From positions 3,780,001 through 3,812,000 of the forward strand of contig JAIZWK010000001.1 of assembly GCA_021498095.1 (NCBI GenBank): a stretch of 32,000 nucleotides of DNA, given 5' to 3'. The translations under genes were made by a program, and so were the position numbers. This document shows, one piece after another, positions 20,266 through 28,089 of this stretch; within the stretch, counting starts at the first letter, position 1; each line of letters starts with the position of its first letter. The notes under the pieces are model-generated. The model ran no database searches. It was not told the origin of the DNA and saw nothing but the letters and a program-made list of their open reading frames with translations. This DNA comes from Candidatus Harpocratesius repetitus (GTDB lineage: Archaea > Asgardarchaeota > Lokiarchaeia > Sigyniarchaeales > Promethearchaeaceae).

Positions 20266-22029
20266 ATGACCGAACATTTATTACTAAAAAAATTTATTTC
20301 ATATTATCGCCCGCACCTTAAACTCTTTATACTTGATATGGTGTGTGCGTTTTTAATTGCTGCTTTAGATTTGGTATTTCCTCTTATTAGTGAAAGATTT
20401 TTAAAGGATTTCATTGTCAACTCCAATTTACGAATGATTTGGACCTTTGGTGGAATATTATTAGGATTATATTTAATTCGAACAGTTGCATTTTACATTA
20501 TGGCATATTGGGGCCATTTAGTAGGAGTTAACATGGAATTTGATATGCGTGCTGATTTATTTCGACACATTCAGAAATTAGACTCCGAATATTTTGATAA
20601 CACCAAAACTGGTCAAATCATGGCTCGACTTACAAATGATCTTCGCGATATCACTGAGCTGGCACATCATGGACCCGAGGATTTGTTTATCTCCATAATT
20701 GAGATAATTGGAACTTTTATTCTACTACTATTAAGAAGTTGGCTTCTTACGCTTATTCTTTTTGTATTTGTGGCAATTTTAATCTGGTTTACAGTTGGAA
20801 TGCGTACAACTATGTTGAAAGCGTTTAGAAATACGCGCCAAGAGCATGCTGAAATTAATTCTGTGCTCGAAAATTCAATTTCTGGCATCCGTTTATGCAA
20901 AAGTTTTGCAGCTGAACCTTATGAATTTGAAAAATTTGAGCATAATAACATTCGATATCGAAAATCTTACTATAAAGCATATCGAGTTATGGCAAATTAT
21001 GCTTCAGGAAGTAATTTTCTTACAGATATTTTAAGTTTGATTGCGTTAGTGGTTGGAGCAGTTTTTGTAGTCAAGGGAATTCAAGGATTAAGTAAGGAAC
21101 AATTGGTAACTTATCTTTTATTTACTAGCATTTTTGTGGCTCCAATTCGACGATTAGTTCAATTCACACAAATATTTCAATCAGGATTTGCCGGATTTAT
21201 ACGTTTTGGCGAAATTATGGATATTAAACCCAAAATAATCGATAGTCCTGAGGCTAAACCACTAGACAACATTCAAGGAAATATTGAATTTCGTAATGTA
21301 ACCTTCAAGTATAAGGATCAAACAAAACCGGTTCTTCATAACTTTAATTTATTTATTGAACAAGGAAAGACTGTAGCATTGGTTGGGCCCTCAGGAGTAG
21401 GAAAGACCACAATCACCCATTTAATTCCGAGATTCTATGAAGTAGATGAAGGTCAAATTTTACTTGATGGAAAAAATATCAAATCCATCGCAATTGACTC
21501 CCTGCGTAGCAATATTGGTTTTGTTCAACAAGATGTTATCGTTTTCTATGGAACAATCCGAGATAATATCATTTATGGAAAACCAGATGCAAGTGAAGAA
21601 GAAATAATTCAAGCAGCAAAACTTGCAAACATCCATGATTTTATCATGTCTTTACCTGATGGATACGATTCAATGGTTGGAGAGCGAGGTGTAAAACTTT
21701 CAGGCGGGCAAAAACAAAGATTAGCCATTGCTCGAGTATTTCTCAGAAATCCGCCTATACTTATTTTGGATGAAGCCACTTCTTCACTTGATACTGTTAC
21801 TGAATTGTTAATTCAAGATGCAATTATAAAACTGGCAAAAGGTCGAACCACAATAATAGTAGCACACCGATTGAGTACTATTAAAAACGCCGATGAGATT
21901 TTGGTGCTTACTGATGAAGGTATTGCCGAACGTGGGAACCATGATGAACTACTTGCACGAAACGGTCTTTATACCAATCTTTATAATGCTCAATTTGAAG
22001 GTTACCTACCTGATTTCATCGAAAAATAA
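20266..22029 (+). CDS. ABC exporter, fused permease/ATPase (MsbA/MdlB-like)
   Basis: N-terminal transmembrane domain; Walker A GPSGVGKTT, signature LSGGQKQ, Walker B ILILDE, H-loop VAHRLST. Confidence 0.95.
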   Translation: MTEHLLLKKFISYYRPHLKLFILDMVCAFLIAALDLVFPLISERFLKDFIVNSNLRMIWTFGGILLGLYLIRTVAFYIMAYWGHLVGVNMEFDMRADLFRHIQKLDSEYFDNTKTGQIMARLTNDLRDITELAHHGPEDLFISIIEIIGTFILLLLRSWLLTLILFVFVAILIWFTVGMRTTMLKAFRNTRQEHAEINSVLENSISGIRLCKSFAAEPYEFEKFEHNNIRYRKSYYKAYRVMANYASGSNFLTDILSLIALVVGAVFVVKGIQGLSKEQLVTYLLFTSIFVAPIRRLVQFTQIFQSGFAGFIRFGEIMDIKPKIIDSPEAKPLDNIQGNIEFRNVTFKYKDQTKPVLHNFNLFIEQGKTVALVGPSGVGKTTITHLIPRFYEVDEGQILLDGKNIKSIAIDSLRSNIGFVQQDVIVFYGTIRDNIIYGKPDASEEEIIQAAKLANIHDFIMSLPDGYDSMVGERGVKLSGGQKQRLAIARVFLRNPPILILDEATSSLDTVTELLIQDAIIKLAKGRTTIIVAHRLSTIKNADEILVLTDEGIAERGNHDELLARNGLYTNLYNAQFEGYLPDFIEK

Positions 22030-22040
22030 CCTTTTTGTTT

Positions 22041-22190
22041 TTTTCCAATTTTTTCCAAGTTTTTCTACCTTTTTCCAACATTTTCTAACTTTTTCCAATA
22101 TTTTCTAACTTTTTCCAATATTTTCTAACTTTTTCCAATATTTTCTAACTTTTTCCAATATTTCCATCTTTATCTAACTATTTTCAACTA
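22041..22190. repeat. 10-bp-period tandem repeat with 20-bp higher-order unit
   Basis: Twelve 10-mers of TTTTC(C/T)A-NNN from 22041 to 22160, including four exact copies of TTTTCTAACTTTTTCCAATA (22081-22160), plus degenerate copies to ~22190. Confidence 0.93.
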
Positions 22191-22219
22191 CTTATTCAAA
22201 ATTTTAAAAGATTAGTAAT

Positions 22220-22249
22220 AAAAAAAGAAGAACTCCTAATGCAAAGGAG
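22220..22249 (-). terminator. Hairpin plus U-tract after selD SECIS
   Basis: CUCCU-UUGCAUU-AGGAG followed by UUCUUCUUUUUUU on the minus strand. Confidence 0.5.
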
Positions 22250-22293
22250 GCTCGGGAGAAAACTCAAAGTTTACTTCTCTCCGTCGTAGCATT
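22238..22293 (-). promoter_or_regulatory. Eukaryote-like SECIS element in selD 3'UTR
   Basis: AAUGC/GCAUU helix I; A-CGAC...CGAG tandem G.A core; 8-bp helix II GGAGAGAA/UUUUCUCC; apical AAA 11 nt from the core. Lies 31 nt after the selD stop. Confidence 0.85.
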
Positions 22294-22324
22294 GAATTAC
22301 AAGATAATTTATTCCATTAAGATC

Positions 22325-23386
22325 TTAATATTCTTCAATTTCATGGTAGGTGATCTTATCATCAAATTTAACACCCTGTAGATCTTTTTCAATCTGTCCT
22401 ATCTCTATCCACCAAACACCAAAAGAATCCAACATGGAAGTGAAATCACTCCAAATGCTTGGATCAACTGCAATTAACATGGGACCTGCAATTTCCGCAG
22501 ATTCCCCTTCAGATAACCCATAACAAAAGAGATCATCCAACTCTAATGCATAAGCAATTGCAGGTAAATGAGTAATGCGTGCCCCCAAGTCGGTATTCAG
22601 AAGCATTTCTTCAAGATGACCTTTAAAACCGAAACCTGTAATATCCGTCATGGCATGAATATGAGAGAAAAACTTGCCAGCGTGAATTACATCAGGAATG
22701 GGTTTATTGCTAGTCGTCATGATTTTTGTAGCTATAGAAACGGCGCGTTCAATTCGTGTCAAATCAAAATTCTTCAACCATGCAATATCTGAATTTTTAG
22801 CACGATCCGCAGCCATTACGGGATGAATTCCCAAGGGTTTGGTTAATAAAAGCCGATCACTCGCTTTAATTCCACGTTTAAAGATTAAATGTGCAGTTTT
22901 TTCGATAGCACTTACACTTCCACCTAATAATGGCCATGGATTTTGAATAGTATGACCGCCTGAAATGTCAGCACCTAATGATTTAAGCAGATCTCGTGTT
23001 CCTTTGAGCATCTCCTCGGCATAACCTTTGGGAAGATCGGTGGGTAGTCCTAAGAAACAACTGTAGTTTAAGATACGGCGCGCATTTAGAGCATATATAT
23101 CATTTGTTACATTAACAGCTGCAATTTTTCCCATGATATATGGATCATCATGAATTGGAGTTACAATATCCAGATTGGTTAATAGACTATCTGTCTCAGA
23201 AATTGCAGTAATTGCGCAATCTTCTGCATCCGAATTAAGTCCGACTTGATTGAGTAGATTATTGAGATCAAGGGCAGGAAGTTTACAGGATCATCCATGA
23301 AGTTGAGTTTTTTCAGTTAATCTGAAGACAGAGTTTTTTGAAAGAATATTAAAATCGGACTGTCGTTCAAAATTTATTCGATTCAC
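22325..23386 (-). CDS. selD: Selenide,water dikinase (selenophosphate synthetase), selenoprotein with Sec at UGA 23291-23293
   Basis: The frame upstream of the track start continues FRLTEKTQLHG-UGA-SCKLPALDLNNLL...EDCAI...LDIVTPIHDDPY into MGKIAAVN. Downstream motifs GGHT, LLLTKPLG, DITGFG. About 353 aa from GTG 23386. Confidence 0.95.
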
Positions 23387-23472
23387 CTCCACTCCGTGAG
23401 TGCATGATTATAAGAAGAAATCAACCAAAAAAAACTGTGGTATTATTTAAAATTAATAAATTTAACTTCAAT

Positions 23473-26364
23473 TTACAAGATAATTTCCATTTCTTTTTGC
23501 ACGCTCGATAATTTTCCAAATGGGTTTTGGTAATTAATATTTAATAGCCAACGTTTTAATTCATAGCGCTTTTCCCTTTCTTTTTCAATTTTAAATACCC
23601 ATCTTAAAATTCGAGAGGTTTCTGGTTCAAATTCATGAATTATCAATTCAAGTGGATCACTTTGATTTGTTTGCAGTTTTAAAAAAGAAGGATGAATAAA
23701 GATTAGACTTAAATCATTCAAAAAGAATTTTGTTGGATTATGAAGACGGAGATCAAAAATAATTTTACTTCCAATAATTTCAACTTTTCTATGCAATTGT
23801 ATGAAATTTTCACCTAATGGTTTGTTGGGTTGAACCAATGCGTTATTTCGAATTTCTGCAAGAAGTTTGTGTTTCTTTAATAAATTAAATATAGAAGTCT
23901 TCAATTCTTCAATAGGAATTGAATATACTCGAGATAGTTGATATAAAGAAAGAGGATTCATATAACTTAAATATTCATTAATTTCAGCGCTGAAGATTTC
24001 TTCTTCAATAGCATCTTGAAATTTATCTAATAAGTCTTTTAATTCAATTTTTACATTATTCCAATGAAGCACATAATTTTGCAATTCTTCAGGATTTATT
24101 TGAGATAAGTCAATAGAATCAATTTTTTGATATATATTATCAATTTCTTTATTATACTCTTCAATTGTGTTAGAAATATTATCTATTGTCATTTTAACCA
24201 TATTACGCGCTTCAGCAAACCGACGTTTTTTAATTTCAAGAAATATGGGTTTTGTTAATTTATCAAAGCTTTCTTTAATCTCACGCAAATTTTGAATAGC
24301 TTGTAAAACAATACGTTGAAGATTACTATTTAGAAAATCAAATGTTATTTTCTTTTTCAAAATATTTTGATTATCATCCTTTATTTCGAGAGTTCTTTCT
24401 AAATCTTTGAAACGATAAATTACTGAAGAAAGATATTGTTGAACTTCAATCTTAACATCAACCCATAATAAGGTAACTTCTTTCAAAGCCTCTTTAAATT
24501 CCATATTTTGCATCCACAATTGCCCAATTTCAAATTCCAGGGTATAAAGTTCTTTCCGCACAAAAGAAATTTTTTCTAATAACTTTTCAGAAAGGGTAGA
24601 TTCAGATAAATTTTGATTTTCATGAAGTTGATTCTCAAGATCTTCGATTTCTTTGTAATTTTCATTCATTTGGTGAATTCTATTTGTTAATTTTTGAATT
24701 TCTTGCTTTAATTCATCTAAATATTTTTCACGTCCTTCTGAAAGTCTATTAATCATGATATATTTTACATCTGAAATATTCTCAAGAACTTCATCCTTTA
24801 TTTCTTTGAAATCTTGTACAATCTCCATAGAAAAACGTTTAAATTCGGAGTTATTTAAAAACGTCTCCATTTCATTTAGTTTTTCGACAATTCGATTACT
24901 CTCTTCTTCCATAAATACTTCTGCTTTTTGAAATTGATTTTCTTCTATCATTCTCTCAGATTCTTCACGCATATTTTGTATATAGGTCTGAAAATCTTCA
25001 AGTCCTTGATAAAATTCTTTTCGTTGTATTTCAATTTCTTTAATGTCTTCATCGATATTTTCAAATAAATTATGAATTTTTTCTAATGAAATATCAATCT
25101 CATCAAGCACATCGAGATCTTTCTCATCTTTTCGATAGTTTTGAAGATTTATAAAAGTCCATACTGCAACAGATTGTATATTCAGAATATAAGTCAAATC
25201 ACCTAAAAGTCTTATAGTTTGCCTTCTTTGGCGCCAATCATCCGGATTTAATCCTAAATACATACGTGCTAATTCTTCTTCAAATACATCTGATTTTTCC
25301 ATATAAATTTTAATCAAACAATCACTAATAAAATCTCTAAACTTTGAGCCTGAATCAATTAATTGCTGAATTAACTGAGGTAACATCTGATGCATGTTTT
25401 GCACAACAATGAATATTGTAGATTCAGTTATTCCTTCTAAAATATCTCTTGATACATCATTTTCTTCAAGATACTGTCTGAAAAATTGAAGTAATCCAGG
25501 ACCCTTTGATTTCCCCACTTTAACAAATGCATCAATGGTTTTTGTCTGAACCATCATAATAGAATCAGAAAACATATCAATCAAACGGTGGAAGATTATT
25601 GTAAAATCAGTGAAAAATAAATCGCCTATTTCTCCGACTATCCAAATTCCTTTTTCGCGTATTTCCCAATCTGAATCATTTAAGATAGATAATAAGATAT
25701 CAACCATTTCTGGACCAGATAAGTGGTAGCCTAATGCTTTTACTGCTTCTGTAGTTAAACCTCTGATTTCTTCATCAGGATCTCGAATTAATTTAGAAAA
25801 ACTTGCTTGAAATATTTCGAGTAGTCTTTTTGGAGGATGAGAACTAGGAACCAAAAATTCCAGCATACCTTCTATAGCTTTTGCTCTAACCCTCCAAGAT
25901 TTATCCTCAAACATCTTTGAATAAGTTATGTAAAGATCAGGATAATGATCAAATGATTTCTTAAGTACTTCAGCAAGTAGTTTAACTGCTGATTCTCGAA
26001 CCTTTTTATCTGTATCGAATAGTTTTGATTCACACATTTCAATAATTGGATCAAATTTCGCAATATCAGCAATTCTAAAGATTTTTCTAAGAATAAGAAG
26101 TGTTTCTTGACGAACCCAATATTCTTTATTATTCAACAACTCTGGAATATATTTCATAGTCAATTCTATGGTTAATGGAGTTTTATCACAAAGAGCATCA
26201 TAAACTTCCAAACAATAAGCAAGGTGGTCTTCATCTTCTGATTGTAAGGTATTAACCAGAAAAGAATTGGTTCTTTCTATCGCAATTTCATACTGGCGAT
26301 TCTTAATTGCTTGCTGAATAAATTCAATGAGATTGTTCGCATTATTCAAAATTTCGGGGTTCAT
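23473..26364 (-). CDS. Large HEAT-repeat protein with helical middle region, PCI-like winged helix and C-terminal Ig-like/appendage domain
   Basis: About 9 HEAT repeats (LLNNKEYWVRQET, LFDTDKKVRESA, MFEDKSWRVRAKA, LIRDPDEEIRGL, ILNDSDWEIREKG, LNPDDWRQRRQT), an E/K/Q-rich helical region, and a beta-rich last ~115 aa. Confidence 0.85.
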   Translation of the reverse strand: MNPEILNNANNLIEFIQQAIKNRQYEIAIERTNSFLVNTLQSEDEDHLAYCLEVYDALCDKTPLTIELTMKYIPELLNNKEYWVRQETLLILRKIFRIADIAKFDPIIEMCESKLFDTDKKVRESAVKLLAEVLKKSFDHYPDLYITYSKMFEDKSWRVRAKAIEGMLEFLVPSSHPPKRLLEIFQASFSKLIRDPDEEIRGLTTEAVKALGYHLSGPEMVDILLSILNDSDWEIREKGIWIVGEIGDLFFTDFTIIFHRLIDMFSDSIMMVQTKTIDAFVKVGKSKGPGLLQFFRQYLEENDVSRDILEGITESTIFIVVQNMHQMLPQLIQQLIDSGSKFRDFISDCLIKIYMEKSDVFEEELARMYLGLNPDDWRQRRQTIRLLGDLTYILNIQSVAVWTFINLQNYRKDEKDLDVLDEIDISLEKIHNLFENIDEDIKEIEIQRKEFYQGLEDFQTYIQNMREESERMIEENQFQKAEVFMEEESNRIVEKLNEMETFLNNSEFKRFSMEIVQDFKEIKDEVLENISDVKYIMINRLSEGREKYLDELKQEIQKLTNRIHQMNENYKEIEDLENQLHENQNLSESTLSEKLLEKISFVRKELYTLEFEIGQLWMQNMEFKEALKEVTLLWVDVKIEVQQYLSSVIYRFKDLERTLEIKDDNQNILKKKITFDFLNSNLQRIVLQAIQNLREIKESFDKLTKPIFLEIKKRRFAEARNMVKMTIDNISNTIEEYNKEIDNIYQKIDSIDLSQINPEELQNYVLHWNNVKIELKDLLDKFQDAIEEEIFSAEINEYLSYMNPLSLYQLSRVYSIPIEELKTSIFNLLKKHKLLAEIRNNALVQPNKPLGENFIQLHRKVEIIGSKIIFDLRLHNPTKFFLNDLSLIFIHPSFLKLQTNQSDPLELIIHEFEPETSRILRWVFKIEKEREKRYELKRWLLNINYQNPFGKLSSVQKEMEIIL

Positions 26365-26523: not shown

Positions 26524-28089
26524 ATGGCGAAGAAGAAAAAAAAAGCCGTAGTCGATCATGATGATATATCAGCGAAAGATTTAGGTATTACTCCAGAAAA
26601 GAAAGAAACTAAAAAATCCACTAAAAAAACAACCTCGAAGAAGAAAAGCACGAAAAAAACTACTACAAAGAAATCTACATCGAAAAAATCGAGTGTAAAA
26701 AAAACTAGTGCAAAAAAGACTTCTGTAAAAAAGTCAACTTCGAAATCTAAAAAATCATCCTCAAAAAGAGCTTCAGTAACTAAGAAATCAACACGTAAAA
26801 AAACAGCAAAAAAGATTACTAAAAAACAAGAATTCATTCAAAGTTCCTGCAATGTGGGTTTAGTAGGACATGTAGATCATGGAAAGACCACATTGGTAAA
26901 ATCACTCTCTGGAACTTGGACTGAACGCTACAGTGATGAACAAAATCGTGGAATTACAATTAAACTTGGTTATGCAGAAACTGTTATTTTAGAATGTCCT
27001 AATTGTCATTTATTAATATCTGAGAATCTCGCGAACAAAGCAAGAAAAAGTAAGAAAGATCCCAAAGGGATGTGTCCGAATTGTCAAATTCCTTTGGAAT
27101 TTAGAAGACGGTTAAGTTTTGTTGATGCTCCAGGTCATGAAATCCTTATGGCAACTATGCTTTCAGGTGCATCATTAATGGATGGTGCTATTCTTTTAGT
27201 AGCCGCAAATGAAGATTGTCCCCAACCTCAAACACGTGAACACTTGGCTGCTTTAGAAATTGCAAAAATTGAAAATATTATCATTGTTCAAAATAAAATT
27301 GATTCAGTAGGTAGAGAACGTACTTTAGAACATTATCGACAAATTAAAGCATTTGTTAAGGGAACAATTGCAGAAAATGCACCAATTATCCCTGTTTCAG
27401 CGATATTTGATGCAAATGTGGATAAGGTAATCGAAGCAATTGAAGAATACATCCCTTCTCCAGAATTAGATGACGAGTCAGATTTTCTGTTTAATGTAGC
27501 TCGATCTTTTGATGTAAATCGACCAGGAACAAAAATTGATGAATTAAAAGGTGGAGTTATTGGGGGTAGTATTATATCTGGAGTAGTCCACGTTGGAGAT
27601 GAAATCGAAATTCGCCCAGGAATCAAAGATCCAGAAACGGGTAAATATCGTCCAGTAATTACTAAAGTTGCTTCAATTTATGAAAGCTCTCATTCATTAG
27701 AGAGTGCTCGACCAGGTGGTTTAATTGCATTTGGAACACTTCTTGATCCTGCAACTACTCGAACCGATCAACTTATTGGAAGTGTAGTTGGTGCTGTTGG
27801 AACTTTACCAGAAATAAAAACTACTATTCAAATTGAAACCCACTTATTAGATACAGTATTAGGTGCAGAAGAAGAGATAAAAGTGCAACCAATTAAAAAT
27901 AATGAATTATTGATGATTGTTGTTGGTACTTCTCTCTCAGCTGGTATTGTTACAAAAATTGGGAAGAAAAATGTTATTACCTTAAAATTAAAAAGACCAC
28001 TTTGTGCAATGGAAGGATCAATTACTGCAATTAGCAGGAGGATTAATAATCGATTCCGGTTAATTGGATACGGTTATTTAATGGAATAA
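26524..28089 (+). CDS. eif2g: Translation initiation factor 2 subunit gamma with Lys-rich N-terminal extension
   Basis: GHVDHGKT, RGITIKLGY, CPNC...CPNC zinc ribbon, DAPGH, QNKID, RSFDVNRPG, ISRRINNRFRLIGYG. ATG at 26524, alternative ATG at 26503. Confidence 0.97.
   Translation: MAKKKKKAVVDHDDISAKDLGITPEKKETKKSTKKTTSKKKSTKKTTTKKSTSKKSSVKKTSAKKTSVKKSTSKSKKSSSKRASVTKKSTRKKTAKKITKKQEFIQSSCNVGLVGHVDHGKTTLVKSLSGTWTERYSDEQNRGITIKLGYAETVILECPNCHLLISENLANKARKSKKDPKGMCPNCQIPLEFRRRLSFVDAPGHEILMATMLSGASLMDGAILLVAANEDCPQPQTREHLAALEIAKIENIIIVQNKIDSVGRERTLEHYRQIKAFVKGTIAENAPIIPVSAIFDANVDKVIEAIEEYIPSPELDDESDFLFNVARSFDVNRPGTKIDELKGGVIGGSIISGVVHVGDEIEIRPGIKDPETGKYRPVITKVASIYESSHSLESARPGGLIAFGTLLDPATTRTDQLIGSVVGAVGTLPEIKTTIQIETHLLDTVLGAEEEIKVQPIKNNELLMIVVGTSLSAGIVTKIGKKNVITLKLKRPLCAMEGSITAISRRINNRFRLIGYGYLME

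Follow-up and report, generated by a model that had tools for sequence, protein, structure and literature searches.

The genome of Candidatus Harpocratesius repetitus, a single closed contig of 4,361,485 bp with 31% G+C, contains one copy of selD, which is very probably decoded with selenocysteine (Sec) at an in-frame UGA and served by a eukaryote-like SECIS element in its 3' UTR. The gene is located on the minus strand of the window, the stretch of 32,000 nt analysed here. Its coding sequence including the stop codon spans 22325..23377 and encodes 350 aa if read from the ATA codon at 23377, an assignment based on the family model TIGR00476, on Pfam and on strain comparison. The frame is open from the stop codon at 23410-23408 to the TAA at 22327-22325, and the sole interruption is the TGA at 23293-23291. 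This Sec codon (23291..23293, minus strand) specifies residue 29 if translation starts at the ATA or residue 32 if it starts at GTG 23386, and lies in the motif H-G-U-S-C-K within the sequence R-L-T-E-K-T-Q-L-H-G-U-S-C-K-L-P-A-L. The UGA in LHG-U-SCKLP had been pointed out in the initial annotation, and both its coordinates and the motif were confirmed on reading the codon.

Read through the UGA, the protein (353 aa from GTG 23386) affiliates with the NCBIfam family TIGR00476 (194.2 bits, cut-off 125), and Pfam recognized the domains AIRS (57.7 bits) and AIRS_C (45 bits), both above their cut-offs. The best NCBIfam model was the methanococcal-type PRK14105 with 258.7 bits, a score below its own cut-off of 291. 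The U aligns with the Cys of the Leishmania SelD 5l16 (G-C-S-C-K) and with the Thr of human SPS1 3fd5 (G-T-G-C-K), and the lysine of the U-x-x-K motif follows at +3 (U-S-C-K). The proposals that the UGA occupies the catalytic Cys/Sec position of SelD and that a SelD-like frame continues on either side of it, in this case as far as the TAA, are thus borne out by the alignment and by the family score. Standard annotation misses this region: the table-11 ORF list holds for selD only a piece of 269 aa from ATG 23134, and the public NCBI protein has 295 aa, begins after the Sec codon at ATT 23212-23210 read as Met, and is devoid of the catalytic N-terminus and loop.

A complete Sec machinery, comprising tRNA-Sec, PSTK, SepSecS and SelB, had been anticipated from the UGA. 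Three of these components were identified in the genome. The tRNA-Sec is located at genome positions 1668826-1668915 and was detected by Rfam (59.8 bits, cut-off 47) as well as by ARAGORN, which calls it SeC with the anticodon tca. SepSecS scored 443 bits (cut-off 224.85), and an archaeal SelB of 491 aa scored 247.7 bits (cut-off 242.25) and additionally matched the Pfam family aSelB_III. For the fourth component, PSTK, the search yielded a candidate below cut-off, a KTI12-family protein of 371 aa. Its best NCBIfam matches are two PSTK models, with scores of 98 and 66 bits that fall far short of the cut-off (98 against 290.5); this KTI12/PSTK-like protein likely represents the PSTK component. 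A genome devoid of tRNA-Sec and SelB had been named as evidence against Sec decoding, and both are present. Positive feedback on the selenium supply via SelD, as suggested by the initial annotation, may reasonably be supposed because the gene is the only selD of the genome. In another part of the window (26851-27618), a 529-aa open frame matches a model of translational GTPases (selB/EF-Tu) in two pieces, covering model positions 2-44 and 45-213 and separated by approximately 100 nt; it may encode a GTPase with an insertion near the P-loop.

The eukaryote-like SECIS element (22250..22290, minus strand), recognized by pattern, homology, covariance model and covariation, starts 40 nt after the TAA stop codon of selD. 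Its 5' core A-C-G-A (22287-22284) is followed by a single C and an upper stem of 8 bp without mismatch (22282-22275 with 22262-22255). The apical part consists of a bulge GUAAA (22274-22270) and a ministem of 2 bp (C-G and U-A, 22269-22268 with 22264-22263) closed by the 3-nt loop UUG, and on the 3' side the return strand leads into a single C, the G-A at 22253-22252 and a G. The predicted fold has a free energy of -13.2 kcal/mol (z = -2.9), and we infer a kink-turn geometry for the element. The general model for eSECIS-like elements of Asgard archaea combines a GA_[G/A]A core with a 7-15 bp upper stem in which up to 2 mismatches are allowed (Huang, Xiao and Zhang 2024, PMC11227280); it is matched here by the GA at 22285-22284, the GA at 22253-22252 and the 8-bp stem. 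Adenines after the upper stem and a type II ministem are likewise present. No 3' bulge occurs, so that the published PatScan pattern for type II, with 1-6 nt at this place, is not matched literally; read as type I with a loop of 12 nt, the element fits. Between the core with its GA/GA and the upper stem lies an unpaired position (22283/22254) at which a C stands opposite a C, and in the genus-mate G002 (L018) a U opposite a U; both sides have changed and the opposition is still pyrimidine-pyrimidine.

Homologous hairpins were found in relatives, either 10-47 nt after the selD stop codon or, in three of them, overlapping the stop codon itself. A covariance model (R1) built from four gap-free members recovered four further members of the family that were not among its seeds, each where it was expected, with E values from 1e-4 to 9e-3. 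In the SECIS alignment (A5), which was fitted to the covariance model and whose numbers hence lean towards structure, all 86 cells pair and 7 of the 11 pairs have changed on both sides. The second pair of the ministem underwent a compensatory change, with C-G in five sequences and U-A in two. The covariation score of 0.727 was reached by none of 500 shuffles (0.283 for shuffles), and slid controls paired at 42-74% with covariation scores of at most 0.25. An independent pattern-based segmentation of the relatives resulted in the same pairs. RNAalifold obtained no pairs from a plain MAFFT alignment of ten SECIS segments, owing to misplacement of the 3' strand by MAFFT; the covariance-model alignment was used instead. 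A search of the whole window at the Rfam gathering threshold retrieved no SECIS or other family, and at E values up to 10 nothing but two chance matches to snoRNAs was obtained for the region 21800-23600; this type of SECIS is not represented among the Rfam models. A bacterial-type SECIS directly after the UGA (23293-23234) was rejected on the basis of its folding energy of -4.5 kcal/mol (z = 0.16). For an archaeon, no structure is expected just after the UGA. Folding of the whole 298-nt 3' region (z = +1.75) was uninformative owing to an A-rich tandem repeat. Immediately beyond the SECIS, a second hairpin of 5 bp with a U-rich tract (22221..22249, minus strand) forms a terminator-like site. 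A hairpin with oligo-U after the SECIS is also present in relatives, and to judge by its sequence the site is likely the transcript end.

The 5' end of selD deviates from that of its relatives. Almost all related selD genes have an ATG that lies 2-5 nt downstream of a (G)GAGGTGA or AGGTGA motif. In H. repetitus, the corresponding Shine-Dalgarno-like sequence GGAGGTGA (23383..23390, minus strand), whose motif is conserved in relatives, contains GTG 23386, and the codon that aligns with the ATG of the relatives is an ATA (23375..23377, minus strand), a probable non-canonical start. Candidate starts are therefore ATA 23377 (350 aa), GTG 23386 (353 aa) and GTG 23392 (355 aa). The same position is occupied by ATT in G002 and by ATC in G001, which together with the ATA makes a run of ATH codons within one genus a second small oddity of this gene. 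In G002, AAT TAA comes directly after the GTG, which thus cannot start selD, and only the ATT is left. The start-region sequence of G002 recurs in a metagenome record; the scan of metagenomes returned 2 loci, one of which is 99.9% identical to G002 and hence non-independent. G008 contains no ATG, GTG or TTG between the in-frame TGA of its Shine-Dalgarno sequence and the Sec codon, and carries an ATA where other relatives have the ATG. A non-AUG (ATH) start in the clade, with ATA 23377 in the present gene, appears likeliest from these sequences, and GTG 23386 or GTG 23392 are possible starts in this genome. The extension of 84 codons beyond the called ORF in the initial annotation is accordingly real in kind, and its length is probably 81 codons, given a start at ATA 23377. 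A genome-wide survey of GGAGGTGA followed by a start codon found 59 sites, of which 4 were canonical, too few to gauge the frequency of ATH starts. Further upstream, a TATA-like A/T box (23441..23452, minus strand) is suggested by the sequence and is conserved in a strain of approximately 95% identity. An out-of-frame ATG (23403-23405) opens a 12-codon upstream ORF which extends to about 23367, ends at a TGA and overlaps the Shine-Dalgarno sequence as well as the selD start region; the loss of 1 nt in the 95% strain places the upstream ATG in frame with selD.

The SECIS core of selD is unusual in its second base. The tetranucleotide AUGA (rarely GUGA) expected in such elements is replaced by ACGA, both in this genome and in the 95% strain. 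A U precedes the sheared G-A in all other 63 selD SECIS elements (AUGA in 54, UUGA in 6, GUGA in 3; L029 was read by hand and the paralogue L077 left out), which renders ACGA unique among the 64. SECIS-like hairpins next to other UGA genes of the genome (a VhuD homologue and two other candidate sites) carry AUGA; a strict genome-wide scan for SECIS-like patterns separated poorly from its control, with 62 matches against 25. The SECIS is identical in the 95% strain, with no change from just before the element through the hairpin, the U-tract and the first bases beyond, as against 6 changes in the 36 nt between the selD stop codon and the SECIS. In the predicted minimum-energy fold, the C of ACGA permits an alternative closing of the core by Watson-Crick pairs only. 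In kink-turn terms, the variant base would correspond to loop position 3, which flips into a protein pocket. At this position, U is strongly preferred by 15.5K/Snu13p, L7Ae and SBP2, and C or A by L30 (Cléry et al. 2007, PMC1874613). In the SECIS of human SelN (SEPN1), the exchange of this U for C prevents SBP2 from binding and leads to rigid spine muscular dystrophy (PMC1874613).

Since the gene is the sole selD and purifying selection acts on it both before and after the UGA (see below), we infer that the ACGA element works in the organism. Its persistence in two diverged strains that keep selD under purifying selection argues that the U at the core position is non-essential here, unlike in humans. 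By analogy with SEPN1, the efficiency of the SECIS could nonetheless be reduced. That the only selD works with an ACGA SECIS, either because the reader has a specificity unlike that of SBP2, 15.5K and L7Ae or, in combination with the probable AUA/AUU/AUC start codon of the genus, as a brake on the self-dependent SelD loop, is a possible but tentative interpretation. If the ACGA element were fully functional, the Asgard SECIS reader would differ from SBP2, 15.5K and L7Ae with respect to the flipped-out base and might resemble L30e, with its preference for C or A. A related explanation, which we regard as rather unlikely, accepts Sec insertion and holds that the ACGA core and a weak AUA start make selD deliberately inefficient, thereby throttling the self-dependent selenium loop, rather than constituting a neutral variant. 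It draws on a core that is unique among 64 elements yet identical in two strains, on the invariance of the stretch from SECIS to U-tract compared with the changes preceding it, on the replacement of ATG by ATH throughout the three species of the genus as well as in G008, and on the weakened recognition of a U-to-C variant by SBP2, 15.5K and L7Ae (PMC1874613). However, the C may be fully tolerated by the Asgard reader, GTG 23386 is still a possible start in this genome, and the sample is one species.

Decoding of the UGA as Sec is further supported by its conservation. selD is present in 56 of the 61 genomes of the same (Lokiarchaeial) order, and nearly every match contains exactly one in-frame TGA. 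Of the related selD copies whose N-terminal region was read, in three batches (29 + 23 + 13), all 65 place the TGA in the same G-U-x-C/V-K column, with the consensus H/F/Y-G-U-S/K/N/A/D-C/V-K, a regularity that far exceeds chance. The TGA is also kept in the strain of ~95% identity, which an independent study of 2025 provided as a contig of 47,966 bp. Over the 243 nt upstream of ATG 23134, this strain differs at 12 positions, ten of which are third codon positions; the changes amount to 10 synonymous and 2 non-synonymous codon changes distributed over both sides of the UGA. In the ten codons R-L-T-E-K-T-Q-L-H-G before the UGA, the comparison with G002 revealed 5 synonymous and no non-synonymous sites. 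Because synonymous changes dominate in both comparisons, the selD frame appears to be translated on both sides of the UGA, and a selD pseudogene was rejected on the same grounds.

A UGA acting as a true stop, with a product of 269 aa (ATG 23134) or 295 aa (ATT 23212) or a decaying pseudogene as the outcome, is for these reasons highly improbable. Standard ORF calling and the public annotation do deliver such a truncated product, and the human SEPN1 mutation suggests, by analogy, that the ACGA core might be defective (PMC1874613). Yet the truncated product would lack the catalytic U/C-x-x-K loop, and a true stop disagrees with the excess of synonymous changes upstream of ATG 23134, with a UGA column kept across the related genes of 56 genomes, with the status of the gene as sole selD, with the genes of the Sec machinery (including the PSTK candidate) and with other UGA-containing genes in the genome, for example the VhuD homologue with 2 TGA codons. 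A changed genetic code was rejected, as TGA is an ordinary stop in this genome, terminating 291 of 1735 long frames, and no tRNA other than tRNA-Sec has a UCA anticodon. A TGC or TGT misread as TGA in sequencing or assembly, implying a Cys-type SelD, has nothing specific in its favour and a negligible probability, since the contigs of the probable source run agree on TGA at a depth of 22.8 with zero variants, and the independent 2025 contig and the 65 related genes carry it as well; reads with TGC or TGT, which the initial annotation had named as contrary evidence, were thus not encountered. Its central proposal of a Sec-containing SelD is supported by family scores, UGA conservation and machinery genes, and from the sequence evidence Sec is probably inserted at this codon.

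Translation of selD would accordingly begin at ATA 23377, or at GTG 23386, behind the Shine-Dalgarno sequence GGAGGTGA, and the ribosome would then arrive at the UGA at 23293-23291. There, Sec-tRNA(Sec) brought by the archaeal SelB would decode the UGA under the direction of the kink-turn type, eukaryote-like SECIS at 22290-22250 in the 3' UTR. The product would be an enzyme of 350-353 aa with a U-x-x-K loop, supplying selenophosphate for SepSecS. With a single selD whose product itself requires Sec to be made, the pathway would be self-dependent.

Eukaryotic SEPHS2 (SPS2) carries a type II SECIS. Like the SelD described here, it is a Sec-containing synthetase which itself needs the Sec pathway, and its 3'-UTR SECIS is of the kink-turn type. 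In contrast, the reader of the eukaryotic SECIS is SBP2, a protein that went undetected in Lokiarchaeota (PMC4989117) and whose human form fails to bind an ACGA core (PMC1874613). A close resemblance exists with the Loki-like SPS genes, for which an in-frame UGA and a distinct, type-II-like lokiSECIS have been described (Mariotti et al. 2016, PMC4989117). Both have one in-frame UGA at the Sec position, a 3'-UTR SECIS near the stop codon, a GA/GA core of the kink-turn type with a short main stem, followed by adenines and an additional apical stem, and so resemble type II. They differ in that the present element has ACGA rather than AUGA, an apical ministem of only 2 bp and no 3' bulge, and in that the present gene derives from a closed genome and the former ones from metagenome fragments (PMC4989117). 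In Asgard archaea, SelD is the most widespread selenoprotein and occurs in its Sec form in more than 90% of the Sec-using members, mostly with a type II eSECIS-like element (PMC11227280). The gene of H. repetitus agrees with these in its Sec-SelD and in the general SECIS model, whereas the main text of that study gives AUGA_AA and GUGA_GA and leaves ACGA_GA unmentioned (PMC11227280); in its supplements, ACGA or the name of the organism matched in protein sequences only. With the SelD of Methanocaldococcus and Methanococcus, the protein shares the character of a Sec-containing archaeal SelD with a 3'-UTR SECIS and the best match to PRK14105, from which it differs by remaining below the cut-off of that model. 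The euryarchaeal GAA_A SECIS is different in kind, as neither the GAA_A bulge nor the run of G-C pairs is found in this eukaryote-like element.

The Sec-decoding selD is hence a correct finding which is already described for Asgard archaea (PMC4989117, PMC11227280), and in practice amounts to an annotation correction: an automated pathway reconstruction based on the 295-aa fragment would see a crippled SelD because the catalytic loop is missing. The new details are the ACGA core, the probable non-AUG start and the shortening of the NCBI protein to 295 aa. Every selenoprotein of the cell depends on the sole selD. In the archaeal lineage that stands nearest to eukaryotes, its ACGA element, kept unchanged in two diverged strains, offers a natural test case for SECIS recognition.

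Two minor observations concern the surroundings of selD and its copy number. A tandem array of approximately 7.5 copies of a 20-nt unit, A-rich on the selD strand (TATTGGAAAAAGTTAGAAAA), is located at 22040-22189 of the window and takes up the interval between the genes for SelD and an ABC transporter, which are convergent. The array has fewer copies in the 95% strain, so that its copy number varies. Many genomes of a sister family (f3) contain two adjacent selD copies (L034/L075, L036/L071, L031/L072 and others), one with G-U-S-C-K and one with G-U-N-C-K, each followed by an AUGA SECIS 11 nt after the stop codon, in agreement with Huang et al. 2024 (PMC11227280), who reported multiple selD genes.
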